DNA of 64,000 nt from Escherichia phage EP335: the sequence record MG748548. One strand, 5' to 3'. Positions 9,967 to 63,600 of the stretch are shown here, piece by piece. Below the pieces are notes generated by a model. The model was not told the origin of the DNA, ran no database searches, and worked only from the letters and a program-made list of their open reading frames with translations. Position 1 is the stretch's first letter. Each line of letters starts with the position of its first letter. A program made the position numbers and the translations under genes.

Positions 9967-11013
9967 ATGTCTCTCTTCGGTTCTTCGGCTAAATCTAAAG
10001 TTACAGTATCGCCTTCTTCTCAAGTGGATGCTCTGTTACGTCAGATTGTTTCCAACGCTCAAGGAATGAATAAAGGTCAATTTGTTGGTCGTGAAATGGC
10101 AGGATTCAATCAGAATCAAAGTGCTGCTCTCTCAGGTTTGGCTAACTCTGATGTACAGAAACAATTGGCTGCTCTTTATACGCCTCGTACTCAGCAAGGC
10201 TTAGACCAGATGAATACTCTGGCCCAGCGATATCAGAGTATGGCAAACGGTGGTGGTGTTACTGGTCAAGCTGTTAATGATTATAGCAAATCCCTGAATA
10301 ACTCGGCTCTTGCACAAGCCACAGGTAAAGCAGCTTCTAATGTATCTCTTGGCAATGGCTCTGATTCTGGTTCACTCCGTCGTGCTAGTGCTCAAGGTGC
10401 TGCTCTGGCTAGTGCAAACACTAACCTCTCTCGTAGTATAGATGGTAAGAACATGGGGATTAATAACCTCCAGAACAATGAAGCTTTCCAACGTGGTATC
10501 CTAGGTGCTCAGACAGGTCTGGCTGGTCAGAATCTTAACTTGGGTGCACAAGGTGTTCAGGCTACTCAGCAAGCCATTCAGAATCAGCTCTTGGCTGGTA
10601 ATCTGCAACAGCAGCAAGATCAGACTCAGGCTAACCTTAATTGGGAGAATGCTATTGGTAATCAACAGTTCGGTTGGAATCAACTCAACAACCAGCTTAA
10701 TGTACTTAACTCAGTAAGTCCTATGGCTGGGTACACAATCAAGAATGCACAACCCGGTGTTAGTCAAGGGCAGCAACTGCTTGGTGCAGGTATGACTGGA
10801 CTAGGTATTGCAGGTCGCTTAGGTGCTTTCACTCCTAATGCTCAGACTCAGAATGCTTGGAACTCTTACAACGCTTCTGGTGGACAATCCGGTATGGCTG
10901 GTCCTATGATTGGTGGGTCTAACCTTTCTAATCAACAGAGTCAAAACAACTGGCTATCTACCGCAGGTAATAATATTTTAGGTGGTGTTCTTGGAGCATT
11001 CGGGGCTAACTAA
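9967..11013 (+). CDS. Gln/Asn/Gly-rich virion protein
   Basis: RBS AAGGAGG; low-complexity Q/N/G-rich composition; adjacent to the transglycosylase. Confidence 0.5.
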   Translation: MSLFGSSAKSKVTVSPSSQVDALLRQIVSNAQGMNKGQFVGREMAGFNQNQSAALSGLANSDVQKQLAALYTPRTQQGLDQMNTLAQRYQSMANGGGVTGQAVNDYSKSLNNSALAQATGKAASNVSLGNGSDSGSLRRASAQGAALASANTNLSRSIDGKNMGINNLQNNEAFQRGILGAQTGLAGQNLNLGAQGVQATQQAIQNQLLAGNLQQQQDQTQANLNWENAIGNQQFGWNQLNNQLNVLNSVSPMAGYTIKNAQPGVSQGQQLLGAGMTGLGIAGRLGAFTPNAQTQNAWNSYNASGGQSGMAGPMIGGSNLSNQQSQNNWLSTAGNNILGGVLGAFGAN

Positions 11014-12008: not shown

Positions 12009-13673
12009 ATGCAACAAACTTCATATGCGTACCTCCGTAGTCGAGACCCACGCAATCAGATTTATGGTGTAAGTCAGGGAGGGGCACAAGCCTCTCCTTA
12101 TGTTCCTCGTCCTGCTTACCCACAAGCAGATATGTCTGTTTATACCCGTCCTAATATGGCTCCTGCTGGATTAGCTGGATTGGTTTCTCAGGCTAATGAA
12201 GATCAAGAAGCAATGCTTGGTCCAAACAAACAAGTTGTTCAGGGTGCTAATATCCAACCTGATATTCCTAACGAAACTCCTGTAGCAGCCTCTCAGTCAG
12301 CTTCTCCGTTTGCTAACGATGAAAGCATGGTTGCTGCTGGCCTTTCTCCAGAAACTGCTTCTCAAGAGTTCTCAGACCCTCTACCGGTAAGTGTTCCTCC
12401 TAAACCGTTGGAACCTACTGATACAGAGTTTACTCAAGACCAAGTTAAACAGGCACAACAGGTTATGTCAACCCTTTCTTCCGGCTTACCTGAAGCTGAA
12501 GGTATGGCAGGTGCTTCTCGTAGCGCTGATCAAGAACGTGTTAACAAGGATTTAATGGAAGTGGCTAAGGCTAAGAACCCGATGGAAGAGTGGGGTAAGT
12601 TACAGAAACAACCTTTCTATCAGAACTCTAGCTTCTATACAGGTTTGATGGGTGTAGGTCTTTCTATTATGTCAGGTAAGTCTCCTATTGAAGCTTTCCA
12701 GATTGGTTCTGGTATGGCTGCACAGGATGAGACTAAGAACCAACTTGAAGCTAACCGCGAATCTCTTATTGAACAGGGTTACTCTCCAGACTCAGTTGCT
12801 GCTGCAATTGCTACTGGTGACCCTTCTGCTCTGAAGATGCGTCAGATTAGTCCTCAAGAGAAACTTGCTTTGTCTGCTATCGAAGATGAGAGAGCTAACC
12901 GTGAATGGGACAGACGCCAACAGGTTAGTGAGCAGTCTATGAGTCGTAGGATGGATGCAACTCGCCAAGCTGCTGAACAACGTGCACAAGAACAGTTTGC
13001 TCGTCAGAAAGAGTTGATTGGGTATCGTGATCAAGTGAAAGCTGATCGTGCTGAACAAGCTGCTAAGAGTTTTAATTTTAACCCGAAAGAAGTTCGTCTT
13101 GCTCAGAACACAGCTGAAGGTACAGTTGCTAAGCAGTGGGCAGAGAAAGGTGGTCTGTTTAACCAGTCCCATAAAGACTTGGACTTGGCAGATCAGGCAG
13201 TTAAAGATAAAGACTACCAGACAGCTCGTTCTGCTTACATGCAGGCTATCATGAACTCCGCAAGGGCTGAAATCGGTGCTACTCGTTCTCTGACTGAAGA
13301 AGACTTACGTCACTTTGCAGAAGACCCCTCAATCTTTGTTAAGGTTGGTAATACTTGGTCTCTGAAAGGTGGGTATCGTCCTACTGATGCTGCTCTTGCT
13401 TATGCTCGTAAGCAGGCAACCGTTGGTGCTACTTCAGCAATGAAGGGTGTTAAGGATGCTAAGAAAGCAACCATTGAAGCTTACGTTGGTTCTGGTATGG
13501 ATAAGAAACGTGCTACTGCACTTGTTAACCGTGCGATACCTTCTGGTGGTTTCTATGACCCGTTAGGTACTTTTGAATCACAGGCTGAGGAAGAGGTTGG
13601 TGGTGCTGCTACTAATCCACGCCTGAATGGTGCTCTTTCAGCTTCTGAAGATACTAGCTGGTTCACTCAATAA
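12009..13673 (+). CDS. Virion protein (function unknown)
   Basis: AGGAG RBS then ATG at 12009 (track start at 11946 lies inside the upstream gene); 554 aa. Confidence 0.5.
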   Translation: MQQTSYAYLRSRDPRNQIYGVSQGGAQASPYVPRPAYPQADMSVYTRPNMAPAGLAGLVSQANEDQEAMLGPNKQVVQGANIQPDIPNETPVAASQSASPFANDESMVAAGLSPETASQEFSDPLPVSVPPKPLEPTDTEFTQDQVKQAQQVMSTLSSGLPEAEGMAGASRSADQERVNKDLMEVAKAKNPMEEWGKLQKQPFYQNSSFYTGLMGVGLSIMSGKSPIEAFQIGSGMAAQDETKNQLEANRESLIEQGYSPDSVAAAIATGDPSALKMRQISPQEKLALSAIEDERANREWDRRQQVSEQSMSRRMDATRQAAEQRAQEQFARQKELIGYRDQVKADRAEQAAKSFNFNPKEVRLAQNTAEGTVAKQWAEKGGLFNQSHKDLDLADQAVKDKDYQTARSAYMQAIMNSARAEIGATRSLTEEDLRHFAEDPSIFVKVGNTWSLKGGYRPTDAALAYARKQATVGATSAMKGVKDAKKATIEAYVGSGMDKKRATALVNRAIPSGGFYDPLGTFESQAEEEVGGAATNPRLNGALSASEDTSWFTQ

Positions 13674-13693
13674 GACCTAAGTCCTGCCTTCTA

Positions 13694-13702
13694 TAATGTA
13701 TA
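13694..13702 (+). promoter_or_regulatory. TAATGTATA promoter-like element upstream of the 1473-aa gene
   Basis: Exact TAATGTATA about 37 nt before ATG 13739, in the loop of a hairpin (13681-13716); the same 9-mer recurs upstream of other genes. Confidence 0.4.
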
Positions 13703-13738
13703 TAGGGGGTAGGACATTTTTATTTATAAGGAGACGTT

Positions 13739-16700
13739 ATGGCTAACATTAAATCTTGGGAAGAAGCATCGAAAAGCCCCAAGTATATGAACGCAACTCC
13801 TGAGCAACAAGCTCAGTTGAGAGAGCAATACAAAGCGGCAGGTGGTACAATCCCTGAAGATAAGCCAGTACAACCACAACAAGAAGAGCGTGGCTTAGTT
13901 GGTGAGTTCGCTCAGGGCGTATCTAATGCTATCGAATCTGGTGGAGCTAATATTGCAGCTAGTACCGCTCGTGGTTTAGGTGGTCTGGTTGAAATGGGTG
14001 AGAACGTTCTCGGTTCCCAAACAAGTTATGGTAAAAGAATTCAAGATAACGCAAAACAAGTATTAGAAAAGCGTATGGCTGGTATCGAGGATGGCTTTGG
14101 TAAGACTGCTGGGCAGTATGCTGGAGTGGCTGCTGATATTGGTTTGACGGTTGCTAACCCAGCTTTGGCTGCTGGTGTTATTGCGGGACGTGAAGCAGGT
14201 CGAGCTTATGCAGACCAGACCCCAGAAGAGGGAGAAGACAAGTCAGTGTTAGATGCTGCTCTTGTTGGTGGTGCTAACTTTGCAGCTCAGAAGATTCTTC
14301 CGGGTTTTACAGGAACAGCTGAATCTACTTTAGGTCGTATTGGTCAGAGTGCTGCTTCTAACGCCGTGGCTGGCGCTAAGGGTGGTGCTCTCGTAGGTGC
14401 TGCTGAAGCTCAGAATAAGTATGGTGATGACACTACACTTGCCAATGTACTAGAAGGTGCAATTGATGAAGGTGTTGCTGGTGCTGCTTATGGTGGAGCT
14501 ATCGGTGGTGTTCATGGTGCAATTAGTCGCCCTAGTCCTCAAGTGTTTGATAAGACTCCTGAGAATGTTAAGACTGATATCTCCGCTGAAGATGAAGCAA
14601 TTCGTAGTGCGAAGAATGCTGATGAACTCCGTGAAGCTTACTCTCAAGCCGATACTGCTAACACAGCTTCCGCTCTTAACCTGCTAGACCAGAACGATTT
14701 CCGTATTACAGATGCTGTGGCTATGGATTCTCCTGCTGCCCAACGTATCCTTAATACTGACCAGACTCGTGCTGAGAAAGCTGCTTCCTCTCTTACAGAG
14801 CGTTCTAATATTCCGGGTCTTAATCCTCTTGTTTCTCCAAGTAAGGTCAAGGGTAAAGCTTTTGCGGATAACGAACATAACCAGAAGCAAGCCGTAGCAA
14901 TGAAAGATGCAATGGCTGACTACACTAAAGACAACACCAAGGCTCTTAATGATGTTCTTGATAACCTAGACCGAGAGTTGAACGACCTTCGTGTTCGTGG
15001 TGACTTTACTGGTAGTGCTATTGACATTAAGAATCAGACTCGTAACGATCGTGATTTCATTGATGCTTACAAGAACTTCTATACTGAAGCAAACAGATTC
15101 AAAGCTCGTGATGGCGAAGACTTTAATAACTTTGTAGAGAAAGCTACTGAACTACAGAAACTTGCTGACAATGTTTCTCCAGAGATGAAGCAAGCTATTG
15201 GCGGTTTGAAGAAACTCAAAGGTATGCCTGAAGGTTTCAACCCTATCCAAGATGCCTTTACTCTGAACAACACAGCTAAACTAATGAGTAATCAAGACCG
15301 TGGTTGGACGACACTGACAGATGATGGTTTCCGTGAAGCCTCTTCTCCAAGCTTTGTTATGAACACCCTAGGTGCTGCTAAGTATGCTCTGAACCGCTTC
15401 TCTTCAGAGAGGGCTAGATCTCAACGTGCTCGACAGCAGGACTCAAACAGTGAAGCAATTCGCTCTTTGGCTCGTGGTGATTTAGAGGTTGCTCGTGCTC
15501 GAAGAGCAGCAGCAAAAGCACGCGAAGAAATGGAAGCCGAACCGGTTGTTGATGACGTCCAATTTAAGACGCAAGCTGATGACCAAAATCAGGCTGGTTC
15601 TGAACCTTCTTCTCCAGCTACTGTGACGGAAGATTTCTCTCCTTCTCCAGCTCCTTTAACTGCTCGTGATTTGGTTGCTCAAAGACGTGCCATCCGACAG
15701 GCGGAACAACGCCGTGCAGAGGAAGAAGCGCAAGCTGCTCAGAATGCTCCAGTTGAACCAGAAGCTCCAGCAGAAACTTTACCTACGCGTAACCCTCTTG
15801 AGGAACGTAGAGTGCAAGAAGCTGAGATGGAACAACAGCGTGCAGCAGAAGAGGCTGCTAAAGCTCCTGAGACGCCCGTAGAAGAGTCTACAGCTAAAGC
15901 TGAGCCATTACCTGCTCGTGCTCCTAAAGCTCCTAAGGAAGCTGCTCCTGAGGTTAAACCGGCTACTGGTGTAGAACGTCTTGCTGCTATGTCAACAGCT
16001 GCTCGTCAGGCTACTAAAAACCGTGCTGAACGTTTTGCTCGTTCTCTGTATACTGCTGGTGCTAAAGCTAAAGCTACTGCGGAAAACTTCTTGGCTTACA
16101 AAGGGGACCCGAAAGAGTTAATGCGTCGTATCCGTCAGGAAGACCAAGCGAACAATGCTGCTCGTCATGAAGAGATGGCTCGCAACCAATTAACTTCTCA
16201 GCAAGGTATTGCAGCTGCTAAGTCTAACCGAGTTCGTTCTGCATTCTCCGATTGGGTTAAAGAACGTGGACTACCTTCTGAAATCGCCTCTAAAGCCCTG
16301 CGTGCTGAAGAACGTGGATTGGATGGTAACGTGTCAAGTCTAGACTCTCTGAAGCGTAGAGCTGAGCGTATGTATCAGAAAGAACGTGATGATGAGTTTG
16401 ATAGAATGTATCGTGAAGCTCTGGAAGAAAACAAAGCTTTCGATAAGAACGATGCACCTAAGCTGAAAGACCAGAAGGCTGAGTTCCAGTCAGAGATTGA
16501 TTCTCTGCTTGAGAGCGAACCTCTTCGTCCTGCTCAGAAAGATGCAATGCGTAAGATGATGAGTGATTTTGTTGATGGGAAGTTTAAAGCGGCTGAGAAA
16601 GCTGGAAGGGAAGAAGCTTTAGAGGTTGGTCAAATGAAGGATTTGTGGGATGGGTTTATTAATACCTACAATCGTGAAGTTGGCATGTTCAATAAAGCTA

Positions 16701-18160
16701 ACAAGAACTCTCAGTATGAAGCAGCAGCTAAACATCTACAGGCTCGTGAAGAACGTCTTACCTCTTTACGTAACAGAGCAGAAGCTCGTGCTCAAGCGAA
16801 AGCTACAGCAGAAGCTGAACGTCAGTCACTCGAAGCGATTGCTGGTCAGAAGACTGAGATAGAGAAGATGTTTGATGAGTTACCTAAACCTGTCCGCGAG
16901 GCTCAGGAAAGTCGTACTCTGAAACAGCTTGCAGCTCACCATGATAAGAACTCCCCTGTTCCTCCAGAACGTTTCCGTAGTATTATCGAACGTATCCATA
17001 ACGCAGAGTCAGACTACCTTGATCGTAAGCGTCGTCTCACTGATGCAGAGGAAGATGCTCGTGAAGCTAAGTGGAACAAGATGTATGAACAAGCAGAGGA
17101 GATGAACCGTAAGTTCGATATAGATGCTCGTGTATCCCGTGATAAGAGCCTCAAAGAAGCTCAGGAGCGACAGAATGATCTCATGGCAGTACAACGCCAA
17201 CGTGATGACATTCATAGCCGTCTGGTGCGTTCTATCGAAGATAAGGGCATCCCTAAAGCTGATGCTGAAGCATTTGCTGGTTCTTATATGGATAACCGTT
17301 ATGCTCTTCTTGAAAAACCTATGACCCCTACCGAACACCAGAATGCTCGTGCACGTATTGAGTCCGATGTAGAGAAGTTTGCTAAGAAGTATGAAAGCTT
17401 GTCTCCTATTGAGAAAGACGTGGTTAAGATTACTGGTGATGTGGAAGGTAAACTGGATGGGTTGGATGCTGAGACTGTGAAGGCAGTTGAGGAAGCTAGG
17501 AAGGTTGACTCTGATATTAAGAAACTTCAGGACGAAGAGTTGGAAATGGAGAAAATCCGTTCAGCTTTACCTGATGATGAAAAGTCTCAGGCAAATTCCG
17601 ACATTCTGGAAAGCATCAAAAAGCAAGAAGATGAGTTTGCAGGGAAGGTTGAGAAGGCATTCTTGGAAGGCAAGGACTTGAAGGAACTGGCTAGTGTTGC
17701 AGAGGTTCTGGATAGGGTTCATGGTGCTGACAAGGCTGGGAACAACCGTAGATTTGTTCGTGCTCTACAGACTGCTGCTGACAACAAGAAGAAGTATGGG
17801 GATAATCCGGTAGCTTGGTTTAGTGCTGATGATTACTCTGCTATTGCTAAACTTGGTGCTGCATCAGCGGGCGGTAACAAATCGAGAGCGTTGGAGAAGA
17901 TCTTTGGTTCTACAGCAGATCAAGCTAAGGCTAAGCTTTTGGGGAGAGATGATGTAGCGAAGATGAGACGTGTGATTGAAGCGAATCCTGAAGTCAAGAT
18001 TCCTTCTTACAAGACTACTACTCGTCAAGAGTATTTACAGTTCTTGGAGAAGTATAATGATGAGGGAGTGTTGAAAGTCAAACGTGGTTCTCTGTCTGAC
18101 AAATTAGAAAGGAATAAGCGTCAAGCTAAACTCCGTGTTAGAGTTCGCTCGAAAGAGTAA
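13739..18160 (+). CDS. Very large coiled-coil/charged virion protein (candidate internal ejection protein)
   Basis: RBS AAGGAGA; 1473 aa; Gly/Ala-rich hydrophobic N-terminal segments followed by an A/E/K/R-rich helical region; last gene of the + block. Confidence 0.6.
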   Translation: MANIKSWEEASKSPKYMNATPEQQAQLREQYKAAGGTIPEDKPVQPQQEERGLVGEFAQGVSNAIESGGANIAASTARGLGGLVEMGENVLGSQTSYGKRIQDNAKQVLEKRMAGIEDGFGKTAGQYAGVAADIGLTVANPALAAGVIAGREAGRAYADQTPEEGEDKSVLDAALVGGANFAAQKILPGFTGTAESTLGRIGQSAASNAVAGAKGGALVGAAEAQNKYGDDTTLANVLEGAIDEGVAGAAYGGAIGGVHGAISRPSPQVFDKTPENVKTDISAEDEAIRSAKNADELREAYSQADTANTASALNLLDQNDFRITDAVAMDSPAAQRILNTDQTRAEKAASSLTERSNIPGLNPLVSPSKVKGKAFADNEHNQKQAVAMKDAMADYTKDNTKALNDVLDNLDRELNDLRVRGDFTGSAIDIKNQTRNDRDFIDAYKNFYTEANRFKARDGEDFNNFVEKATELQKLADNVSPEMKQAIGGLKKLKGMPEGFNPIQDAFTLNNTAKLMSNQDRGWTTLTDDGFREASSPSFVMNTLGAAKYALNRFSSERARSQRARQQDSNSEAIRSLARGDLEVARARRAAAKAREEMEAEPVVDDVQFKTQADDQNQAGSEPSSPATVTEDFSPSPAPLTARDLVAQRRAIRQAEQRRAEEEAQAAQNAPVEPEAPAETLPTRNPLEERRVQEAEMEQQRAAEEAAKAPETPVEESTAKAEPLPARAPKAPKEAAPEVKPATGVERLAAMSTAARQATKNRAERFARSLYTAGAKAKATAENFLAYKGDPKELMRRIRQEDQANNAARHEEMARNQLTSQQGIAAAKSNRVRSAFSDWVKERGLPSEIASKALRAEERGLDGNVSSLDSLKRRAERMYQKERDDEFDRMYREALEENKAFDKNDAPKLKDQKAEFQSEIDSLLESEPLRPAQKDAMRKMMSDFVDGKFKAAEKAGREEALEVGQMKDLWDGFINTYNREVGMFNKANKNSQYEAAAKHLQAREERLTSLRNRAEARAQAKATAEAERQSLEAIAGQKTEIEKMFDELPKPVREAQESRTLKQLAAHHDKNSPVPPERFRSIIERIHNAESDYLDRKRRLTDAEEDAREAKWNKMYEQAEEMNRKFDIDARVSRDKSLKEAQERQNDLMAVQRQRDDIHSRLVRSIEDKGIPKADAEAFAGSYMDNRYALLEKPMTPTEHQNARARIESDVEKFAKKYESLSPIEKDVVKITGDVEGKLDGLDAETVKAVEEARKVDSDIKKLQDEELEMEKIRSALPDDEKSQANSDILESIKKQEDEFAGKVEKAFLEGKDLKELASVAEVLDRVHGADKAGNNRRFVRALQTAADNKKKYGDNPVAWFSADDYSAIAKLGAASAGGNKSRALEKIFGSTADQAKAKLLGRDDVAKMRRVIEANPEVKIPSYKTTTRQEYLQFLEKYNDEGVLKVKRGSLSDKLERNKRQAKLRVRVRSKE

Positions 18161-18165: not shown

Positions 18166-18202
18166 AAAAGCCCCAACCGAAAGGAAGGGGCTTTATTTTT
18201 AT
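18166..18202 (+). terminator. Rho-independent terminator (AAAGCCCC ... GGGGCTTT then T-run)
   Basis: 8-bp stem followed by ATTTTTA, 6 nt after the stop; lies in the convergent junction between the + and - blocks. Confidence 0.65.
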
Positions 18203-18885: not shown

Positions 18886-19066
18886 AACCTACATCCATAT
18901 CATCCTCCTGCCAGACTCGTTTGTTAACACGGTGACTAACCTTGTCAGCTTTAGGGATACGACCAGTACGTTGATCAAACAGTTGGTGTTTAATCTTCTG
19001 ATCTTTACGAGTTTCACGGTTAGGTGAAGTTTCATCATAAGTACGGTAGTTGAATTTATTACCCAT
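18872..19066 (-). CDS. Small basic protein
   Basis: AAGGA RBS before internal ATG at 19066; Lys/Arg-rich 64 aa. Confidence 0.4.
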   Translation of the reverse strand: MGNKFNYRTYDETSPNRETRKDQKIKHQLFDQRTGRIPKADKVSHRVNKRVWQEDDMDVGYGEG

Positions 19067-19898
19067 TATCAATATCCTTATTCCAAATTTTATCAAGCCA
19101 TGACCACTCGAAGAGGTCTTCTGGTGTTTGACCTACGAATAGGAGACGAGCATTCTCAAGCATCTTCTCTTCCCATTCTGTATCAAACTTCTTATAATAT
19201 TCCATTCGCACTATATGATAAAGAGTCCACTTATCACTTACACCTTGTAAAAGGTTGATAGCGGCTTTCTTTCCAACCCCTTGACGACGGAGTTGTAACT
19301 TACCTCCCCACATAACTTCCTCACGTTCGCCACAACCGGGAATGTTATCTGTTCCATCACCAATGAGCATTTGATAAAAGAAGTTTTGCCAAGCAACCTC
19401 ATCTGATACATAGTGAGGAGGAACCTCTTTCTGCCTTTCTCCACATGCCCACCGATAATGCCAACCGGGAGTTATCAGTAAATCTTTGTCTCGTGTACAG
19501 ATGATGGTGTTCTTGTCAGTTCGCTGCCTTTCTGCTAATGCGTCATCAGCCTCTCTTCCGTAAACATCTATATACTCATAATTGTTTTTAATGTAATCAC
19601 CAACGTTCTGCCAGTGGAAAGGTCTTTCTCCCGGAGGTCGGTTGGCTTTGTATCCTTGCTGCTTTGCTACATCAAAACGGAAGTTACCGCCTTCACTGAA
19701 ATAGAAGACTGTCTTTCGACAGCCAGCGCGAGCAATGATTGTATCAAGTTTGTTTTGAAGTCGTTCAATTAGAAATCCATAATCTACTGGTGTACGTCCT
19801 GTATCTAGGAAAGGATGCTCCTGAGTCAGAGCACCCACTTCGTATCGGAGAACATCAGCATCCACTAAAGCTACTTCAGGATACTTAACGTCTTCCAT
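19059..19898 (-). CDS. 5'-3' exonuclease / flap endonuclease (FEN family)
   Basis: Motifs GYKANR, GREADDALA, CTRDKDLL and GDGTDNIPG match the metal-binding motifs of T5 D15 / Pol I 5' nuclease family; RBS GGGGAG. Confidence 0.85.
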   Translation of the reverse strand: MEDVKYPEVALVDADVLRYEVGALTQEHPFLDTGRTPVDYGFLIERLQNKLDTIIARAGCRKTVFYFSEGGNFRFDVAKQQGYKANRPPGERPFHWQNVGDYIKNNYEYIDVYGREADDALAERQRTDKNTIICTRDKDLLITPGWHYRWACGERQKEVPPHYVSDEVAWQNFFYQMLIGDGTDNIPGCGEREEVMWGGKLQLRRQGVGKKAAINLLQGVSDKWTLYHIVRMEYYKKFDTEWEEKMLENARLLFVGQTPEDLFEWSWLDKIWNKDIDNG

Positions 19899-19899
19899 A

Positions 19900-20491
19900 T
19901 TACTCCCCTAAAAGTTTACGAACTTCTTTCTTGAATGTTTCATACTCTTCAGGGTATTCAAACCCACACTCTAGCATTGCGTAGTGAACAACCTTAAGCA
20001 AGTCTTGAACCTTGTTCTTATCTTTGTGACGATAAGCATACTTAATCATGTTGCATTGCTGGAAATTGAGCTGAGGGTTATTTGCATAGAACATACTTAA
20101 TCATGTTGCATTGCTGGAAATTGAGCTGAGGGTTATTTGCATAGAACTCAATAGGTTGAATTTTCTTAGAGTCAGGGTCGTAGTGAGCACCACCAACCAT
20201 AACATCTAGTGCTGGACTTCTTTTGCTGGTTTGTTCAGTTGTATTCTTAAAACTGACCACAGGAACAGAAGAGTAAACTATATACTCTTCCCCTACTGGT
20301 GGTTTTACTCTTAGTCCACGCATGGCATATTCAATCTTTATGTCAGCGGAACCTGAAGCGACCTCTTCAATAGATTTTCGATAGCTGTCAATAACTGCTC
20401 TTAGCATAGAGATTGTTTTGGTCATATCTTTTACTTTCTCATTCAGTACAACAATCTCTGATTCTTTGAAATCGAACAAATTCATTTCCAC
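19900..20491 (-). pseudogene. DUF3310-like gene interrupted by a 55-bp tandem duplication (two ORFs 19900..20094 and 20078..20491)
   Basis: Both ORFs contain FYANNPQLNFQQCNMIKY; removing one repeat copy restores a single ~178-aa frame with an HY...NxIKY...R..K DUF3310-like core. Confidence 0.6.
20037..20146. repeat. Perfect 55-bp direct tandem duplication (2 copies)
   Basis: 20037-20091 and 20092-20146 are identical: catacttaatcatgttgcattgctggaaattgagctgagggttatttgcatagaa. Confidence 0.9.
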
Positions 20492-20874
20492 TCTCCAATG
20501 ATTTCCATATCAAATTTATCTCCTTTCTTCGTAAGGAGTATTGCCGGTTTATCTTTACTTTTCATGTACTCAAACATATGCAGAGAGCCTCTTGACTCTC
20601 CATCCCAGAAGACTATCGCTGAGTCAGCATACTCTCCCATGTCTACGTTTCGAAGGATACCAGCTTTCTTTCCTAAGGTTGTCCAAGAAGGGATAAACCT
20701 TTTAATACCAAGGCCGTTATGCTTAGCAATAACCTCTCCATGAGAGTCTGGCCCTTTTGCTCCCCCTGATACAACTTCAGTGAAGAGCTTAGGTATCTCT
20801 TTCGGGAGTAAATCCCACATCTGAATAAAAGAAGGCCAGTCAATAGACCGGCTTCCTGCTATAATCACTTTCAT
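20482..20874 (-). CDS. DUF2493 / SLOG-family protein
   Basis: Pattern IIAGSR...VVSGGAKGPDSHGE...GKKAGILRN...IVFWDGESRGS matches the DUF2493 (LOG/Smf-like Rossmann) family. Confidence 0.65.
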   Translation of the reverse strand: MKVIIAGSRSIDWPSFIQMWDLLPKEIPKLFTEVVSGGAKGPDSHGEVIAKHNGLGIKRFIPSWTTLGKKAGILRNVDMGEYADSAIVFWDGESRGSLHMFEYMKSKDKPAILLTKKGDKFDMEIIGEWK

Positions 20875-20875
20875 A

Positions 20876-21517
20876 TTAAGACCCTTGGAATTCTTCCTTG
20901 TCGAAGTGCTTCTCTACCACATACTCATACAGATCTTTATACTCTGCATAACGCCGATAGAAAGTCCCGTGTGAGATGCCTAGCTCTTTCTGAATAGAAT
21001 CATGAGGGATACCTAAGAAGAGCATTGAGAACATGCTTGCGAGCTTCTGTGTGTCCATTGTATCACTCAAATCTTGGAAGAAGTAGAAGATACGAGATTC
21101 CATGAAAGGGTCCCCAACTGAATCATGCTTATTAACTGCATATTCCAGAGGACCTTCTGAGTAAATGTCAGGGTTGTTAAACATATCTGCTTCTGGAATA
21201 GCATAGATACGTCGATCACCAACTGTCTGTCGATTAGAACGGATAGACCAGATGATATTCTTCACACGATAGGTCATGTGCTCAATCTCTACTTCACCTT
21301 CCAGTAGAAGCTCTTCTTGCTTGGAATAGATAAAACGCCAAACATTAAGCAACACCTCTTGAGCTACATCCTCTGCTTCATGATAGTCACGAATGTCATA
21401 CATAAAGAATTTGTGAACCACTTTCCAGTTCACCTTATAGAACTCATCGAAGGTTGGGAAGTATTTGATTGGAATACCGTGAATACGATATCGAGTAGGT
21501 GTTGTTTTCTTAGCCAC
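20876..21517 (-). CDS. Phage sigma factor (ECF-like, sigma-70 regions 2 and 4)
   Basis: Region-2-like [15 protein letters not shown] and C-terminal [19 protein letters not shown]; no phage RNA polymerase gene is seen in the window. Confidence 0.6.
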
Positions 21518-21547
21518 AAGTTATCCTTAACTTTGTTGGTTTTAAAT

Positions 21548-21754
21548 TTATACGCTGATCAAGTAAATAGCTGTTTCTGGGTTTGGTGTGTGTTGTTGTG
21601 GTGTTCCGGGGATACGAATCCACTCATCGTTTTCTGGTTCGTAATACAACCAAGCATCTGTGAATTTGAAAGTTCTTCCAAACACTTTATTATCATGTTC
21701 CCAAATTACGTGAACATTCCTAGTATCAGGTAATACTGTTTGCGCTCTAATCAT
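21548..21754 (-). CDS. Hypothetical protein
   Basis: 68-aa ORF in the - strand gene chain. Confidence 0.4.
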   Translation of the reverse strand: MIRAQTVLPDTRNVHVIWEHDNKVFGRTFKFTDAWLYYEPENDEWIRIPGTPQQHTPNPETAIYLISV

Positions 21755-22011
21755 TGGATACCTCTTTCTTTTAGAGCCTCTATTAACCCGTTGTGGTTAG
21801 CAGCACACTCTGTATATTGGTCTTGATACCACTCTAGTGTCGTTGATAGTGCAACACCTTGTGGGCCTTCTAGCATCGGTAAATCTACCCTACACTCAGC
21901 TTTTAGGTTTGCTGGTAAGGGCATTAATTGCCTGCTGTTGTCGCTCATTGAACAGCTTGACGTACTTATCACTAGCGCAAACATTATAAAAAACTGGCTT
22001 AGTCTTTTCAT
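21751..22011 (-). CDS. o-spanin-like outer-membrane lipoprotein (Rz1-like)
   Basis: Signal peptide plus lipobox-like ISTSSC, Pro-rich mature region; overlaps the 3' end of the i-spanin-like gene in another frame. Confidence 0.55.
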   Translation of the reverse strand: MKRLSQFFIMFALVISTSSCSMSDNSRQLMPLPANLKAECRVDLPMLEGPQGVALSTTLEWYQDQYTECAANHNGLIEALKERGIQ

Positions 22012-22246
22012 AGTGCATCTCTTTGTAAACTGTCTCAGTGTTCTTCTTCCAATCTGATAGACCGTTGAGAACTCTCATAGCAACCTCATCAGCTGCTTTG
22101 TTTCTCTCTATCTCTAATTCTTGCTGATGTTTCTCTTTGTCCAGATTATTACTATCTGTTTGATATTCGTTAAACTTCATACCACCAAAGAACACAAGAG
22201 CTGAAAAGACGATGAACCCTAAGTTATCACTTAACGTGTTTTGCAT
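21896..22246 (-). CDS. i-spanin-like protein (Rz-like; N-terminal TM, periplasmic coiled coil)
   Basis: ATG at 22246 with GGAGATAAT RBS; N-terminal TM LGFIVFSALVFFGG then charged helical region. Confidence 0.55.
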   Translation of the reverse strand: MQNTLSDNLGFIVFSALVFFGGMKFNEYQTDSNNLDKEKHQQELEIERNKAADEVAMRVLNGLSDWKKNTETVYKEMHYEKTKPVFYNVCASDKYVKLFNERQQQAINALTSKPKS

Positions 22247-22257
22247 ATTATCTCCAA

Positions 22258-22282
22258 CGAAAAAAGCCACCCGAAGGTGGCT
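22258..22282 (-). terminator. Rho-independent terminator (AGCCACC-UUCG-GGUGGCU then U-run) downstream of the SSB-like gene
   Basis: Perfect 7-bp stem with tetraloop; A6 on the + strand gives a U-tract on the - strand transcript. Confidence 0.6.
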
Positions 22283-22304
22283 AAACTATTACAAGGAGAG
22301 ATAC

Positions 22305-23045
22305 TTAGAATGGAGATTCGTCTTCTTCAAAAGTAGACTCAGGCTCACGATCGATAGTAGGGATAGAAGCAACCGGCTCTTTCTGCTCGTTCTCAGAAGC
22401 CTTAGTGACTTCACGACCAGCGAGAGGAATGTTCTTAGCGTCATTAGCTTGGGTAAGCAGGTTACGCTGGAATGGGAAGATTACCTGATAAGCAGCTACG
22501 TTATCATCTGTTTCAGCATACGGTTCGAAGAAGACCAGAGGACTGCGAGCAGCAGCAACAGCTTCACGATACTTGGTAGGAATCGGAGTAATCTGTTTGA
22601 TAGAGTTCTTAACTTCACCAGCTTTGTTGGTGTAAGAGTTGATTAGAACGTTTACAGGCTGACCTAACAGCATTTCTTTAAACCAAGCCAAATCACCTTT
22701 CAGTGCTTGGATGCTAGGGTCAACCATCTTAATTAGGTTGAGAATACCAGAGTTCTTAGCTCGTGGGTTTACATCGAAGCTCTTAAACTGACATGCAGGG
22801 CGCGGGTCAAGAGCATTGCCTTCAGAGTCCTTACCGGTTGCATCAACACCAATCAGCTCAAACGCCAAGTCCATACGGAAAGCTGGGTTCTTAGGAGTAA
22901 CTGCTTTAGTCTTAGGGTCAACCCAAGGGTCACGATTGTGAACACCAAGACCAACAACACGAACGATACGAGCTTCGTACTCACCATCAGGGATTACGTC
23001 GTAGTTGGATTTACGGGAAACGGACATAGTTGGGATAGAAGACAT
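22305..23045 (-). CDS. Putative single-stranded DNA-binding protein
   Basis: 246-aa protein ending in acidic tail EEDESPF (terminal Phe, as in SSB C-termini); weakly supported. Confidence 0.45.
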   Translation of the reverse strand: MSSIPTMSVSRKSNYDVIPDGEYEARIVRVVGLGVHNRDPWVDPKTKAVTPKNPAFRMDLAFELIGVDATGKDSEGNALDPRPACQFKSFDVNPRAKNSGILNLIKMVDPSIQALKGDLAWFKEMLLGQPVNVLINSYTNKAGEVKNSIKQITPIPTKYREAVAAARSPLVFFEPYAETDDNVAAYQVIFPFQRNLLTQANDAKNIPLAGREVTKASENEQKEPVASIPTIDREPESTFEEDESPF

Positions 23046-23102
23046 ATTTTAATTTCCTTATTTAATTTAAGATTGTTGCTCACTTTGAGCGGTTATGTAT
23101 AG

Positions 23103-23111
23103 TATACATTA
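23103..23111 (-). promoter_or_regulatory. TAATGTATA promoter-like element upstream of the SSB-like gene
   Basis: Reverse complement of 23103-23111 is TAATGTATA, about 60 nt upstream of the start at 23045; a second copy in + orientation lies at 23175-23183. Confidence 0.4.
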
Positions 23112-23590
23112 CACCTATACCGATAAGGGTGCTATATAGTATAAGCAGTAGTGGTAGTAGATATTGACTACTAGTAATGTATATATTGTATAGATGATAA
23201 TTCTATTGCAGGCTTGTATATTGGGCAATTCTCAGAATCCCTTGCAAGTACCGAAGGGCAGGAGACACCTGCGAGATAAAAATAGAGAATTAAGGAATCC
23301 TTGATTTAGGTTGTAGGGACTCCTAGGGACTTTGATTCTCTATTTAAAAGAAATATTAATTACTTACTACCTAAATAGTTAACTAACTTACTTAAAACCT
23401 TTTCAATAAGAATTGCTAAAAGGATAATTCCTAAGAAAGCTAATAAGAGAAAGGCATAAGTTACCATTCCATCATTCCTTTTAATCTAGATTCTTCTACT
23501 ATTCGCTGATAGAGTAAGTTAGACTCAGCTTGATCTTTTAACATTTTACTGTATTGATCTCTGAGACTATCTTTATAAACAACAGGTGGT

Positions 23591-24097
23591 TTAAATAGTG
23601 ATGATACTTTGTTCTTTTCTTCTTTCATCAAAAGTCTTCCTAATCTCTTGCAGAGATACAGCTTTAAAGTTGATTTGTTCCATCGAGGTACAGAAGTATC
23701 TCCAATCATCAATCACATGATTGTGAGTATGAGCATAGATGTTGAACTTCCCTCTCATTTCATCAGCGTGAATGGGAATGTGAGTCACCCAAAACTCTTT
23801 GTACTTGAAGTCACCTGATACAGTTCTGAACACTTTCATAATCTGTGGTAACAAATCCAGTCTGTCATGATTCCCTAAGACAAGATGCTTCTCGCCTTTA
23901 ATCTCATAGATGATATCCAGTGCATATGGTTCAAACACCCAATCACCAGTGAAGAAAGTCTTATCTCGTTTAGTCACATGGTCAAACGCTGAAAGAACTG
24001 CTTTATCGTGCTCTTCAATACTACCAAACTGTTTACGAAACTTGCAGATATTACGATGACCTAAGTGACCATCTCCTGCGAAATATACTTCAGCCAT
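23591..24097 (-). CDS. Metallophosphoesterase (calcineurin-like phosphatase)
   Basis: Motifs GDGHLGH, GDWVF, GNHD and HTH match the MPP signature D-x-H...GD...GNH[DE]. Confidence 0.8.
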   Translation of the reverse strand: MAEVYFAGDGHLGHRNICKFRKQFGSIEEHDKAVLSAFDHVTKRDKTFFTGDWVFEPYALDIIYEIKGEKHLVLGNHDRLDLLPQIMKVFRTVSGDFKYKEFWVTHIPIHADEMRGKFNIYAHTHNHVIDDWRYFCTSMEQINFKAVSLQEIRKTFDERRKEQSIITI

Positions 24098-24106
24098 AAA
24101 GACCTC

Positions 24107-24328
24107 TTAGATTGTGCAACCATCACACACGAAATCCCCACTCAGGGATTCTTGTAATAAACGACTTTGTTCATCAGAGACTAACTGATTAACAACTTTC
24201 TGTAACTCTAACAGTTGATCAAAATCTATATATCCCCCTTCCTCAAGAACGTTAGTTTCAATCCCCCATAAAGGTGATGGCATGTTTCTGCTTGCATTAA
24301 AAATCATCGTATGTTTCCTTATGTCCAA
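24107..24328 (-). CDS. Hypothetical protein
   Basis: 73-aa ORF directly downstream of the phosphatase gene. Confidence 0.4.
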   Translation of the reverse strand: MDIRKHTMIFNASRNMPSPLWGIETNVLEEGGYIDFDQLLELQKVVNQLVSDEQSRLLQESLSGDFVCDGCTI

Positions 24329-24458
24329 GATTTAGCTTTTACTTCAACGTAGGTTTTAACTTCACCTTTCAGAACCTCTTGAGAAGCGATAGCGCTTTCT
24401 TCAGAGTGGTGTACAACAGTAATTACTTTCTTCCCAATCTTATAAGTATGAACCCAAA

Positions 24459-24665
24459 TCATTTAACTTCCTCAATATCAACTAGTTCAAAACTTCCTAT
24501 TTCTTCAAGCTGGATAATCTCTTTAACCTTCTCAACAGCTTTAATAGGGTTTTCTTCTTCTACAACTTTACACCCTGACACTTCGAGACTGCCTGTTCCA
24601 CGAAGGTATAGATTTAACTTATAGATCACTTTGTAATATTTCATCGTATTCCCAATTTCTTTCAT
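24459..24665 (-). CDS. Hypothetical protein
   Basis: 68-aa ORF; start uncertain. Confidence 0.35.
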   Translation of the reverse strand: MKEIGNTMKYYKVIYKLNLYLRGTGSLEVSGCKVVEEENPIKAVEKVKEIIQLEEIGSFELVDIEEVK

Positions 24666-24798
24666 AATATCCAGAGTTGTAGTTTAGGGCGCATTTCTCA
24701 GCCTCTTCTATGTCATCTGTGTTTAGGATATTAACCCAACCACCAACTTCATCAAAACCCTCTTCTTCTTCATTAAACCATACGCTGTATTTCTTCAT
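24619..24798 (-). CDS. Hypothetical acidic protein
   Basis: Internal Met of track ORF 24619..24819, coupled to the stop of an upstream small gene. Confidence 0.35.
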   Translation of the reverse strand: MKKYSVWFNEEEEGFDEVGGWVNILNTDDIEEAEKCALNYNSGYYERNWEYDEILQSDL

Positions 24799-24974
24799 CT
24801 TGATAAGACTCTTCCCCAATCCTTGATGTAACAGCGACCATCAACCCACTTGGTCTCTGATTTAAACTCTTGAGAGATTCTTGTTTCACAGTCTTCTTTA
24901 CTGTAATCACCAAGCATCTCCATCACACAAATAAACAGAGCTATACCAATGGCCCACAGAATTAATTTCTTCAT
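24798..24974 (-). CDS. Small membrane protein (59 aa, not in ORF track)
   Basis: My own translation MKKLILWAIGIALFICVMEML...; stop overlaps the next start (ATGA). Confidence 0.35.
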
Positions 24975-25363
24975 CGAATCACCAAAGGCTCATCAGAATA
25001 CACAGGAGCTGCTATTTCTACAGGAGGTGCTGCTCTGAGGTCATTAAGTCTTACACCTTTTAGCATTCCATCTAGATGGTCCATTTTAGGAATTCCAACA
25101 GGGAAGTCGTCAATCCAAATATCTACAAAGAAACCAAGCTGACGACACACATCATCCTTCTGTACGCCGTTACAAAAGATAATAGGAATCTGCAAGCACT
25201 CTGCATCAATCTTAATGTCGTGGTTGTCGTACCCATTAGGCTCTGCAAAGCGATAAGTTACGAATCGTACATCATAACCCTTCGACTGCATTAATGCTAC
25301 CACAGAACGCCACAACTCTTTATCAGAGGTGTAGGTATCATCGTAATCTAAACCAATGTTCAT
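24971..25363 (-). CDS. HAD-like hydrolase (possible nucleotidase)
   Basis: N-terminal IGLDYDDTYT resembles HAD motif I (DxDxT); later IWIDDFP resembles motif IV. Confidence 0.5.
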   Translation of the reverse strand: MNIGLDYDDTYTSDKELWRSVVALMQSKGYDVRFVTYRFAEPNGYDNHDIKIDAECLQIPIIFCNGVQKDDVCRQLGFFVDIWIDDFPVGIPKMDHLDGMLKGVRLNDLRAAPPVEIAAPVYSDEPLVIR

Positions 25364-29089: not shown

Positions 29090-29404
29090 TTAACTAGAGC
29101 TTAAAGCTCCTTTGCGACCGCCAGCTGATTTTCCAGCGCGATCTCCACTTTTGCCGCCAGCTGAACGATTTCCGCTGACTGTCTCAACACGTAAATTGCT
29201 TGACGCATTAGAGCCTCCTGATTTAATGGCTCGTTTGTGTCCGACATCTTTACCTTTGAGTGCAGATTTTCCAACGCGTTTTTCAACGATGCGACGTGCA
29301 CGGTGGCGCTGAGCATCTCCGCTCTTACTTCCAATTCCCGTTTCACCTCTTGCGATGGCTGTACGTCTTTCTTGTGCATAATCTCTTTTAGCCTTATCAG
29401 TCAT
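29090..29404 (-). CDS. Highly basic Gly/Ser/Arg/Lys-rich protein
   Basis: Strong RBS AAGGAG 7 nt before ATG 29404 and an upstream TAATGTATA motif; an alternative-frame ORF (29101..29379) is embedded. Confidence 0.45.
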   Translation of the reverse strand: MTDKAKRDYAQERRTAIARGETGIGSKSGDAQRHRARRIVEKRVGKSALKGKDVGHKRAIKSGGSNASSNLRVETVSGNRSAGGKSGDRAGKSAGGRKGALSSS

Positions 29405-29440
29405 TTACAACTCCTTAATATATCAGTGTACACTAAGGAG

Positions 29441-29449
29441 TATACATTA
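29441..29449 (-). promoter_or_regulatory. TAATGTATA promoter-like element upstream of the basic-protein gene
   Basis: Reverse complement of 29441-29449 is TAATGTATA, about 40 nt upstream of ATG 29404. Confidence 0.4.
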
Positions 29450-29462
29450 TGAGAGGGTAGCT

Positions 29463-30203
29463 TTAGTTGCCATCCTTCTCCATAGCTTTAACGATTGCTT
29501 TACAGAAACCAGAACGAACAATATCATCCGAGTCACCATCAACAATATCAGCGAACTCATACAGATCGTGCTCGTCAATGAACTCGGTAGCCCAAGTAAG
29601 ACCACTCTCTCGACCTTTCATATCGTGCTGGTTAGTGTCACCCATGCAGAACAGCTGGGATGTTTCACCCAAGCGAGTCATAATAGAGAATGCTTCATCT
29701 TTGGTTGTATTCTGGAACTCATCCACAATAACAATGGCATCATTGAAAGAGCGACCACGGAGATATTCCAGAGGTACGAACTCAATATTACCGTTACCAA
29801 GCTGGCATTCATAGAAACCTTTACCATACCGCTGAGTGATTACATCAACAATAGGCATTAGGTACGGTTCGAACTTATCACGAAGCCCACCCGGAAGTAG
29901 TCCAAGAGAGTTACCCATGCCAACAGAAGGTCGGCTAATGATAATCTTTTGAATCTTACCGCTCTTCAGTGCATCAATGACAGTAGAGGTGATGACGAAC
30001 GTCTTACCACAGCCCGCAGGAGCGTCTGTGAACACCACTTGTTTAGTCTTGATAGCATTGAGCAGCTCAGATTGAAACTGATTCTGAGGGACCACTGGCT
30101 TCGCTAAAACAACCTCTTCATATTCACGCTTACCCTTCTTGGTGACTAAGGCTTCACGACGTAAATCTTTACGAGACTCTCTACGGGACTGTCTACGGCT
30201 CAT
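29463..30203 (-). CDS. phoH: PhoH-like ATPase
   Basis: Walker A DAPAGCGKTF, Walker B IVIVDEFQN and overall PhoH-like layout. Confidence 0.8.
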   Translation of the reverse strand: MSRRQSRRESRKDLRREALVTKKGKREYEEVVLAKPVVPQNQFQSELLNAIKTKQVVFTDAPAGCGKTFVITSTVIDALKSGKIQKIIISRPSVGMGNSLGLLPGGLRDKFEPYLMPIVDVITQRYGKGFYECQLGNGNIEFVPLEYLRGRSFNDAIVIVDEFQNTTKDEAFSIMTRLGETSQLFCMGDTNQHDMKGRESGLTWATEFIDEHDLYEFADIVDGDSDDIVRSGFCKAIVKAMEKDGN

Positions 30204-33682: not shown

Positions 33683-33754
33683 TTCACTCTCTCCTGTTCA
33701 ATACAATATTCTTATACTGTATATACATTTGAGAGTGATCATATCTACTACCAA

Positions 33755-39202: not shown

Positions 39203-39412
39203 TTAAATACCTTTCCAATCGTTCATGATTTTTTCAATATAAGCACACTGTTGATCAGTGGCACCTGTTACAAATATTTCACACCCTAACTGTTCACAGA
39301 AAGGATTGAGTATTAAGATTTGAGATTTACCATATGAGTGATGCTCTCTGTAAATAACACAACCAGCATCCCAAACTGAATCTAATGCCTTACTTAACCT
39401 TTTGTGTTTCAT
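39203..39412 (-). CDS. Hypothetical protein
   Basis: 69-aa ORF. Confidence 0.4.
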   Translation of the reverse strand: MKHKRLSKALDSVWDAGCVIYREHHSYGKSQILILNPFCEQLGCEIFVTGATDQQCAYIEKIMNDWKGI

Positions 39413-39468
39413 ACAGTCTCCAGTTAATCCGAACTAGCCTCCTCTTTCGAAGAAGCTAGAGCAGATTG

Positions 39469-39651
39469 CTATGCTGTGAAGTTTTTGATTACACCGCAAA
39501 TAACATCTGTTTCAAACGTACCCACCAGAACATCGTCTCGGTAGAAATTAATCGCTTTACCATCTCGGTTAAAGTGATCTGCTTCAATGAGCATAGATTG
39601 TACCTGACCATCTGGGGTGGAGGTTCGAAAGATGACGTTATACTGACTCAT
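39469..39651 (-). CDS. Hypothetical protein
   Basis: 60-aa ORF. Confidence 0.35.
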   Translation of the reverse strand: MSQYNVIFRTSTPDGQVQSMLIEADHFNRDGKAINFYRDDVLVGTFETDVICGVIKNFTA

Positions 39652-39890
39652 AAAGAAGTTACTCCCTTATCTTCTTGAGCGATAGAGATGATACGACTCA
39701 CACACTGCATTGAGTACTCATCACCACGCTTTAGGAACGTTACGATAGCAGAGAATTGATTACCAATCATCCGCTCATTTGTAATACCGAACTCTTTGCA
39801 GAGTTCTTTCAGTTTGCTACGAGAACCAATAATCAGAGGTTCTTTTTCTTCAGTCATTCCACGACTAATCAAATCTTCAATAGACAACAT
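39648..39890 (-). CDS. Hypothetical protein
   Basis: 80-aa ORF; start coupled to neighbours. Confidence 0.4.
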   Translation of the reverse strand: MLSIEDLISRGMTEEKEPLIIGSRSKLKELCKEFGITNERMIGNQFSAIVTFLKRGDEYSMQCVSRIISIAQEDKGVTSL

Positions 39891-41131: not shown

Positions 41132-41133
41132 TT

Positions 41134-63236: not shown

Positions 63237-63600
63237 CATATAATGTATGTTGTTACATGATGCTATTGTTAGCGGCTTGCGGAAGTAATATACCAATCAA
63301 ATATTTCGCTACTGACGTAGCTCATATGCTTCACTCATCAAACTATCACGCACTGCGTGCAACGCTGAAAAAGAAAAGATTAAAAGAATAACATAAAGAA
63401 ACAATTAAAAGAATAATAATAACATCAATTATTAAATCCAATCTAATTAATACATACATCATTAATCCACTCATAATCATCACACTAATCATTATTTACA
63501 TTCAAACTATGGGGCGATGTGATTGTTACTATCCGGTATTATTAGTCATGAAATGGTGTGCCCTGTACAGTGCTGGCCTCTCATACCCTCCCAATTAATG

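Follow-up and report, generated by a model that had tools for sequence, protein, structure and literature searches.

Replacement sigma factors such as T4 gp55 and SPO1 gp28/gp34 redirect the host core RNA polymerase (RNAP) to phage promoters, and T4 middle transcription keeps and remodels sigma-70. Phages of the phiEco32 type differ from the T4 middle system in using a complete replacement sigma factor together with a small partner, which evicts sigma-70 region 4 and props the phage sigma factor. The promoters of phiEco32 were reportedly mapped in Pavlova 2012, which is said to be the primary paper. What the phiEco32 type shares with T4 AsiA/MotA is that the host core RNAP is redirected over time through remodelling or replacement of sigma region 4, a comparison drawn in PMC12276001.

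The phiEco32 system has been resolved by cryo-EM of a complex in which gp36, gp79 and promoter P68 are bound to E. coli RNAP (PDB 9m7y; PMC12276001). According to this work, gp36 contacts the clamp helices through D44, E47, E49, D50 and E54, its −10 readers and wedge residues are E79, H80, Y83, R84, W90, S91, S94 and N95, and its −35 readers are Y186 and R187. The bases read by gp36 in the structure are −14A, −13A, −12T and −11G, and in P68 −37G is contacted by R187 and −34A by Y186. The partner gp79 displaces sigma-70 region 4 and stabilises the C-terminal domain of gp36, and the gp36 holoenzyme transcribed P26 and P68 in vitro (PMC12276001). The experimentally determined consensus, TAATGTATA or tAATGTAtA, is located upstream of genes 6, 13, 26, 40, 58 and 68 (PMC4331800), and PMC4281155 describes three middle and three late phiEco32 promoters with the common motif. 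In middle and late promoters that depend on gp36, the core AATGTA lies around −11.5 (PMC12276001).

Two further systems are close enough for comparison. Salmonella phage 7-11 (PMC4331800) likewise has a highly diverged phage sigma factor, a single dominant −10-like element, the same genome layout and an anti-sigma partner; its promoter logo, however, can be aligned with TAATGTATA only by introducing a 1-bp gap (PMC4331800). Group 4 (ECF) sigma-70 factors share with gp36 the two-domain architecture of a sigma-2-like and a sigma-4-like part, and the recognition of a −10 element that is read partly in single-stranded form with an additional −35 contact. They differ from gp36 in that helix alpha-1 of gp36 is rotated by about 70 degrees, the alpha-4 helix of its sigma-4-like domain is shortened, the flap-tip helix is bound differently and the C-terminal domain is stabilised via gp79 (PMC12276001).

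The DNA analysed here is a stretch of 64,000 nucleotides from Escherichia phage EP335 (record MG748548), hereafter the window. Positions 19000–25000 are 95.9% identical to KBNP1711 and 97.3% identical to KarlSchell_Bas89 (Bas89), and about 81–83% identical to some 90 further E. coli and Shigella phages of the Gordonclarkvirinae. Judged from these identities, the source of the window is a phiEco32-like coliphage of the subfamily Gordonclarkvirinae with KBNP1711 and Bas89 as nearest relatives; compared with phiEco32 it represents another genus-level lineage (KBNP1711/Bas89-like), with a DNA identity of about 80%. From gene 15 up to the right end of its genome, phiEco32 runs collinear with the window. 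Because phiEco32 genes 1–14 are thus not covered, the counterparts of P6 and P13 lie outside the window. GC skew changes its sign only once along the window, at the strand switch near 18 kb, and is near zero over approximately 21–24 kb; the region from 23 to 25 kb is AT rich (GC 0.36). A previous sequence-only reading of this DNA had noted that no phage RNAP is visible. Indeed, none of the seven window ORFs of at least 450 aa contains an RNA-polymerase Pfam domain, which agrees with the use of the host RNAP throughout by phiEco32-type phages (PMC12276001).

The same reading had proposed that a phage sigma factor is encoded at 20876–21517. This assignment holds, and an orthologue of the gp36 partner is present as well:

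20876..21517, minus strand: sigma factor, orthologue of phiEco32 gp36 (213 aa, GTG start; matches to gp36, 9m7y_F and PHROG 1740)
39648..39890, minus strand: orthologue of phiEco32 gp79 (73% identity over 80 aa, E = 5e-46)

Over 212 of its 213 aa, the product of the sigma factor ORF shares 83% identity with phiEco32 gp36 (E = 2e-138). Among solved structures it matched one chain, PDB 9m7y chain F, which is gp36 (E = 4.5e-121), and it also matched PHROG 1740, 'RNA polymerase sigma factor' (E = 8.7e-46). By homology, the ORF is a gp36 orthologue of the PHROG 1740 type. Its nearest copy, in Bas89 (99.5%), is annotated 'RNA polymerase sigma factor', an annotation that is already present in KBNP1711, Bas89 and many other records. 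Homologues were detected in 105 phage records, some of them as weak matches of the N-terminal part (approximately 44%) in relatives of Salmonella phage 7-11; the resemblance to the 7-11 sigma factor is confined to the first 62 residues. A search of IMG/VR with the sigma protein returned four close relatives only.

The region 2 to which the sequence-only reading had drawn attention is borne out by a 17-residue stretch at residues 46–62. Residues 41–60 are identical to gp36 with the exception of V59 (A in gp36), and in the alignment to gp36 all clamp-interface residues (D44, E47, E49, D50, E54) are conserved. The −10 readers E79, H80, Y83, R84, W90, S91, S94 and N95 are identical and bear the same numbers, and the −35 readers are conserved within GTFYRRY, where a 1-residue insertion shifts Y186/R187 to Y187/R188.

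The designation 'ECF-like' holds for the architecture of the protein and not for family membership, since the Pfam and TIGR02937 cut-offs are not reached. Pfam Sigma70_r2 scored 17.7 bits, below its gathering cut-off of 24 (E = 0.0031), and covered residues 34–62 only, the region-2 match around DVAQEV that the protein has in common with group 4 factors. Neither Sigma70_r4 nor Sigma70_r4_2 matched the ORF, and HTH_23 alone was found at residues 169–193 (E = 0.13). NCBIfam TIGR02937 (sigma70-ECF) gave 25.8 bits against a cut-off of 42.9, with a weak end-to-end match over residues 23–191 that spans both domains. A sigma-2-like plus sigma-4-like fold has been reported for gp36, which is 83% identical to the window protein (PMC12276001). 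Unlike group 4 factors, the window sigma factor misses all curated thresholds and is not accompanied by a cognate membrane anti-sigma factor.

With sigma contact residues that are all conserved, a gp79 orthologue, the same gene order and tAATGTAtA promoters at orthologous positions (see below), the locus closely resembles that of phiEco32. We consider it very probable, on the basis of orthology, that the phage relies on the host RNAP with a gp36/gp79-type switch and four orthologous promoters. Early genes would be transcribed by the host sigma-70 holoenzyme, as the phiEco32 literature describes and orthology suggests here. The two-domain phage sigma factor (20876–21517) and the small gp79-like partner (39648–39890) would then be produced. 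Bound in the RNA-exit channel, gp79 would displace sigma-70 region 4 and thereby switch off host and early transcription. The N-terminal domain of the gp36 orthologue would sit on the beta' clamp helices, read AATGTA at −14 to −9 and melt the DNA from −11, and the C-terminal domain, supported by gp79 together with the flap-tip helix, would recognise a weak −35 box in which −37 is a purine and −34 is A.

How the sigma gene itself is first expressed can be narrowed down from its position downstream of the P40 orthologue and of a good terminator at 22282–22265 (minus strand). As both lie upstream of the gene, its first expression must result from read-through or from a sigma-70 promoter, and such an origin has been proposed for SU10 (PMC4281155). 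A sigma-70 promoter was not discernible directly upstream of the sigma gene: the best match was 10/12 at 22011–21983 (minus strand), and promoter-like matches did not exceed the shuffle background.

The suggestion of the sequence-only reading that sigma-dependent promoters of phiEco32-like phages contain an element of the TAATGTATA type is borne out by PMC4331800, PMC4281155 and PMC12276001. The exact 9-mer occurs four times in the window, at 13694 (+), 23103 (−), 23175 (+) and 29441 (−). The three copies that had been reported, 13694–13702 (+), 23103–23111 (−) and 29441–29449 (−), are all present; the fourth, 23175–23183 (+), had been overlooked. Both near matches also exist, AAATGTATA at 33722 (−) and TAATGTATG at 63241 (+). 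By chance 0.69 exact copies would be expected, and a count of four was reached in 1 of 100 shuffles, so that the support from copy number is modest. One-mismatch variants are not enriched (18 observed, 19.2 expected). For this reason near matches could not be accepted on counts and were therefore judged by orthology. Five of the six occurrences of the octamer AATGTATA fell within the approximately 8.4% of the window in which the transcribed strand carries no ORF, and four sites were located 30–51 nt upstream of ORF starts in sense orientation, the ORFs being the orthologues of phiEco32 gene 26 (late) and genes 40, 58 and 68 (middle). It is placement, not copy number, that makes the promoter case.

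Four sites, 13694 (+), 23103 (−), 29441 (−) and 33722 (−), can be aligned base-for-base to P26, P40, P58 and P68 of phiEco32:

13671..13709, plus strand: predicted late promoter, P26 orthologue (TAAGA at −38 to −34; TAATGTATA at 13694–13702; predicted +1 at 13709)
23096..23134, minus strand: predicted middle promoter, P40 orthologue (9-mer at 23103–23111; predicted +1 at 23096; bipartite pattern)
29434..29472, minus strand: predicted middle promoter, P58 orthologue (9-mer at 29441–29449; predicted +1 at 29434; bipartite pattern)
33715..33753, minus strand: predicted middle promoter, P68 orthologue (GGTAGTAGATAT at −37 to −26; AAATGTATA at 33722–33730; predicted +1 at 33715)

The +1 positions were taken from the published phiEco32 numbering; from homology we infer these start sites and the dependence of the window promoters on the sigma factor. 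The P26 site is identical to phiEco32 P26 from −40 to +5, matches the bipartite pattern and precedes a 1473-aa ORF at 13739–18160 with a predicted 5′ UTR of 30 nt; its 9-mer is invariant in eight genomes. The P40 site, whose 9-mer is invariant in nine genomes, precedes the ORF 22305–23045 (−) with a predicted 5′ UTR of 51 nt. The P58 site precedes the ORF 29090–29404 (−) (predicted 5′ UTR 30 nt). Here the sequence upstream of about −17 is wholly divergent between genomes and unrelated to that of phiEco32, whereas hardly any changes occur between the start of the 9-mer and the end of the downstream leader. The P68 site, the counterpart of the promoter in the cryo-EM open complex (PMC12276001), carries the same A-for-T deviation as phiEco32 P68 and also shares its GGTAGTAGATAT box. 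Its −35 box and 9-mer are invariant in seven genomes, and it precedes the ORF 33353–33682 (−) with a predicted 5′ UTR of 33 nt. In general, the 9-mer of each site is invariant across the six to eight relatives that can be aligned there, while the flanks diverge at some sites.

When the six phiEco32 promoters were aligned, four positions proved constrained throughout: −38 is always T, −37 and −36 are always purines, and −34 is always A. The invariant purine at −37 and the A at −34 agree with the structural contacts to −37G and −34A (PMC12276001). A bipartite pattern built from these six promoters, TRRNA-N18-WAATGTA, finds six matches in the window compared with 0.59 expected, and none of 100 shuffles reached six. 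Over the whole phiEco32 genome it recovers the six known promoters and two other sites. All four orthologous sites of the window combine T-R-R-N-A at −38 to −34 with WAATGTATA at −15 to −7.

The fourth exact 9-mer, at 23175–23183 (+), is found 64 bp away from the 9-mer of P40, in the opposite orientation. It forms part of the following candidate, downstream of which a conserved element is located:

23152..23190, plus strand: candidate gp36-type promoter, divergent from P40 (TGGTAGTAGATAT-N10-TAATGTATA; predicted +1 at 23190)
23190..23350, plus strand: predicted non-coding transcript of about 160 nt or conserved element (5′ hairpin at +1 to +17; GCAGG/CCUGC hairpin; long hairpin at about 23279–23346)

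The candidate has TGGTA at −38 to −34 and is identical to the P68 box in 12 of 12 positions from −37 to −26. Within the window GGTAGTAGATAT occurs only twice, at this site and at P68, each time 10 nt upstream of the 9-mer. Since its GGTAGTAGATAT-N10 architecture is that of P68, the −37G and −34A of the structurally resolved promoter are also present in the candidate. The −10 element is that of a gp36 promoter, with an exact TAATGTATA that is extended to TAATGTATATA in 15 genomes, and TGGTAGTAnAT-N12-TAATGTATATA is kept in 15 of 15 genomes with constant spacing and a variable spacer sequence. The phiEco32 counterpart, at 36681–36719 (+), is one of the two matches to the bipartite pattern beyond the six known promoters. 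A search of IMG/VR with the composite pattern identified five related genomes, each with exactly two matches, namely the candidate and P68. The genomes found in this way were the same as in the search with the sigma protein, plus chance matches.

We rate the chance that 23152–23190 (+) is a functional seventh gp36 promoter as even or slightly better, based on this architecture and its conservation. The site is not among the six promoters given in PMC4331800 and PMC4281155, which cite Pavlova 2012, and a literature search for an antisense promoter, small RNA or origin in phiEco32 or Kuravirus found nothing relevant. This extra divergent promoter copy appears to be undescribed. The candidate faces away from gene 40, has no sense-oriented middle or late gene downstream and points into non-coding DNA, followed by the antisense strand of minus-strand genes. 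A 36-codon ORF at 23194 (+) was rejected as a leaderless gene, as its start codon ATG is CTG or TTA in relatives.

A considerable possibility, if short of even, is that 23175 (+) is not an independent promoter, and is instead a decoy or non-productive site for the gp36 holoenzyme, a regulatory or architectural element of P40, or part of a transcription-activated replication origin, which in that case would extend over the 100-nt conserved element as well as the AT-rich DNA beyond. Such readings would account for the missing conserved ORF downstream and for the absence of the site from the six published promoters. Against them stand the complete two-box layout of P68, with the same spacing, and the conservation of both boxes across a spacer that varies. 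A role as an accessory to P40 is argued against by ES17 and a metagenomic viral contig (IMG/VR UViG 3300045988): in both, P40 is separated by 186 nt and has its own GGTAGT box, whereas the (+) copy still adjoins the conserved downstream element. The origin variant is favoured by the AT-rich DNA beyond the site (GC 0.36 over 23–25 kb), but GC skew has no origin-like inflection near 23.2 kb.

The remaining evidence on this question comes from the element itself, which is more conserved than any other non-coding stretch that was found in these genomes. About 100 nt within it are invariant across genomes with divergent flanks, the element region is present in 97 of 97 related records, and the intergenic region is approximately 92% identical to genomes of Kuravirus, the genus of phiEco32, compared with approximately 81% for the neighbouring genes. 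A 6-bp hairpin starts exactly at the predicted +1 (23190). It shows UA/GC and CG/AU/UA exchanges, and in seven sequences it contains G.U pairs, which would be A.C mismatches if the other strand were read. In the hairpin 97.4% of cells are paired compared with 88.9% in shuffles, none of 500 shuffles being as high, for a set of sequences that are closely related; slid controls gave at most 50% paired. The plus strand folds more stably than the minus strand in 13 of 13 distinct sequences, by a mean of 7 kcal/mol. A covarying hairpin with G.U pairs that begins exactly at the predicted +1 speaks against the non-promoter readings. On the other side, the predicted RNA has a 5′ half of unremarkable stability (z 0 to −1.6), and the long hairpin at about 23279–23346 has a proper U-run on the minus strand only, its 2–3-U tail on the plus strand making it a poor terminator in that direction. 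Searching Rfam with 22900–23600 yielded only sub-threshold matches to irrelevant families, and the conserved element had no match in the E. coli genomes searched.

Returning to the seventh promoter, we tentatively suggest, at less than even probability for the two outcomes jointly, that the candidate drives a conserved structured RNA of about 160 nt (a gp36-dependent small RNA) or a primer or activator transcript of an origin. The RNA would begin with the covarying 5′ hairpin and would end at the long hairpin, which would also terminate oncoming minus-strand transcripts.

The second near match had been put forward together with the sigma-dependent sites, but is not supported as such:

63241..63249, plus strand: near match TAATGTATG, one mismatch to the 9-mer, unsupported as a gp36 promoter

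The region around 63241 does not align with phiEco32, so that the site is without an orthologue there, and it fails the bipartite pattern because −38 is G and not T. We regard it as unlikely that 63241 (+) is a lineage-specific extra gp36 promoter that reads toward the terminal repeat and the left-end genes. Such a promoter would fit the intact AATGTA core, the GGGA at −37 to −34 that also occurs in phiEco32 P6 and the non-coding location, and the site is kept in Bas89, ECBP2 and KBNP1711, with the core kept in 4E8. Against it stand the chance rate of one-mismatch copies, the G at −38 together with a G at position 9, and the overlap with a perfect TATAAT. Conservation is uninformative at this site, because the region as a whole is 92% identical in all four relatives where it is present and no footprint stands out. 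A 44-codon lipobox-like ORF at 63257 (MMLLLAACG...) was rejected as a leaderless gene: in relatives this following ORF has 15 codons, and its greater length in the window is due solely to a lost stop codon.

That the 9-mers are AT-rich intergenic words or −10-like elements (TATACT/TATATA) for host sigma-70, and that the phage sigma factor has another or no specificity, is very improbable: the small excess of exact copies, the chance level of one-mismatch copies, a weak sigma-70-like match overlapping 23158–23187 and the sigma-70 promoters that the SU10 authors predict to overlap middle promoters, which may also be read by sigma-70 (PMC4281155), would fit it, but in position the sites are orthologous to promoters that PMC4331800 and PMC4281155 describe as experimentally established for the gp36 holoenzyme, P26 and P68 were transcribed in vitro by that holoenzyme (PMC12276001), the gp36 residues that read −14A, −13A, −12T and −11G are all conserved in the window sigma factor, the motif is invariant though its flanks diverge, and a canonical −35 box is absent at the proper distance.

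The finding of a phage sigma factor with TAATGTATA promoters is correct but already known, because the sigma factor, gp79, the consensus and a cryo-EM structure showing the open complex have been published for phiEco32 and extend to this phage by orthology. Its practical value is annotation, as middle and late transcription units can now be drawn with predicted start sites. The divergent copy and the conserved element that it faces are a modest new lead and the sole part that could add knowledge. If the divergent copy is transcribed, a non-coding RNA or an origin transcript would be added to a well-studied phage regulatory circuit, and GGTAGTA at −37 would be the preferred −35 box of gp36.

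The P26-like late promoter (window 13681-13715, + strand) is enclosed by a 15-bp hairpin, which is followed by AUUUUUAUUUAU. The fold of the 76-nt stretch at this promoter has an energy of -24.5 kcal/mol (z=-3.4), and the identical arrangement of hairpin and P26 promoter is present in phiEco32. In RNA coming from upstream through this site, a terminator would form. RNA begun at the predicted +1 (13709) would carry only the 3′ arm of the hairpin and would escape termination.

At the convergent junction 3′ of the 1473-aa ORF, a 36-bp stretch (window 18166-18201) shows 100% identity to more than 100 unrelated, approximately 175-kb T4-like phages of Klebsiella, Enterobacter and Cronobacter, and some of these records label it 'terminator'. 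The stretch forms the fold AAAGCCCC...GGGGCUUU with a U-run behind it (z=-3.4). A further terminator-like hairpin is listed here together with two hairpins of a conserved non-coding element:

22265-22282, minus strand: strong intrinsic-terminator-like hairpin AGCCACC-TTCG-GGTGGCT plus T6, directly 3′ of the gene 40 homologue
within 23252-23350: short hairpin GCAGG-N5-CCTGC
within 23252-23350: long hairpin AAATAGAGAAT...ATTCTCTATTT

The hairpin at 22265-22282 separates the middle promoter P40 from the spanin and sigma genes; due to this position between P40 and the sigma gene, the first transcription of the latter is not plain from sequence. The element of approximately 100 nt at 23252-23350 corresponds to phiEco32 36781-36879 and is invariant across genomes with diverging flanks. 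It also contains two TAGGGAC repeats; in Paul, ECBP2, Bas87 and TH34, each repeat lacks one G, both being affected together. Read on the minus strand, the long hairpin has TTTTTAT on its 3′ side, and together they look like a terminator.

A stretch of approximately 1.9 kb (window 59482-61347) has no ORF of at least 40 aa on the transcribed strand, and in phiEco32 its counterpart, which lies between genes 124 and 125, is likewise without an annotated gene. For SU10, early sigma-70 promoters have been placed in the corresponding spacer of the early region (PMC4281155). Near the genome end (window 63150-63300), three ACGGGG repeats spaced by approximately 30 nt precede the 9-mer near match at 63241. 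The mini-ORF behind it, MMLLLAACGSNIPIK, has a lipobox-like LAAC and extends over 44 codons in the window, compared with a stop after 15 codons in four relatives. Among the differences from KBNP1711, the closest RefSeq relative, is the layout of the family-A DNA polymerase, which is a single 615-aa ORF in the window (26528-28375, minus strand) and one ORF in phiEco32 but is annotated in KBNP1711 (39285-41910) as two pieces with an endonuclease gene in between.

The bipartite pattern of promoters used by the phage sigma factor gp36 also has an intragenic match:

10675-10704, plus strand: TGGAA-N18-TTAATGTA, within the gene 23 homologue

Both phiEco32 (23005) and KBNP1711 (23281) have a counterpart at this position. 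The match lacks TATA after AATGTA; it may represent a weak late promoter inside the gene or a coding-constrained chance occurrence. For gp36-type promoters, we compared the −35 boxes at window positions 13671-13675, 23130-23134, 23152-23156, 29468-29472 and 33749-33753 with those of phiEco32 P6 and P13. Middle promoters have T-R-G-Y-A (TGGTA, TAGCA/TAGTA, TGGCA) and late promoters T-R-R-G-A (TAAGA twice, TGGGA), and a longer TAAGACCTA is common to P13 and P26. In this small sample, the −35 boxes seem to divide by temporal class, middle versus late.
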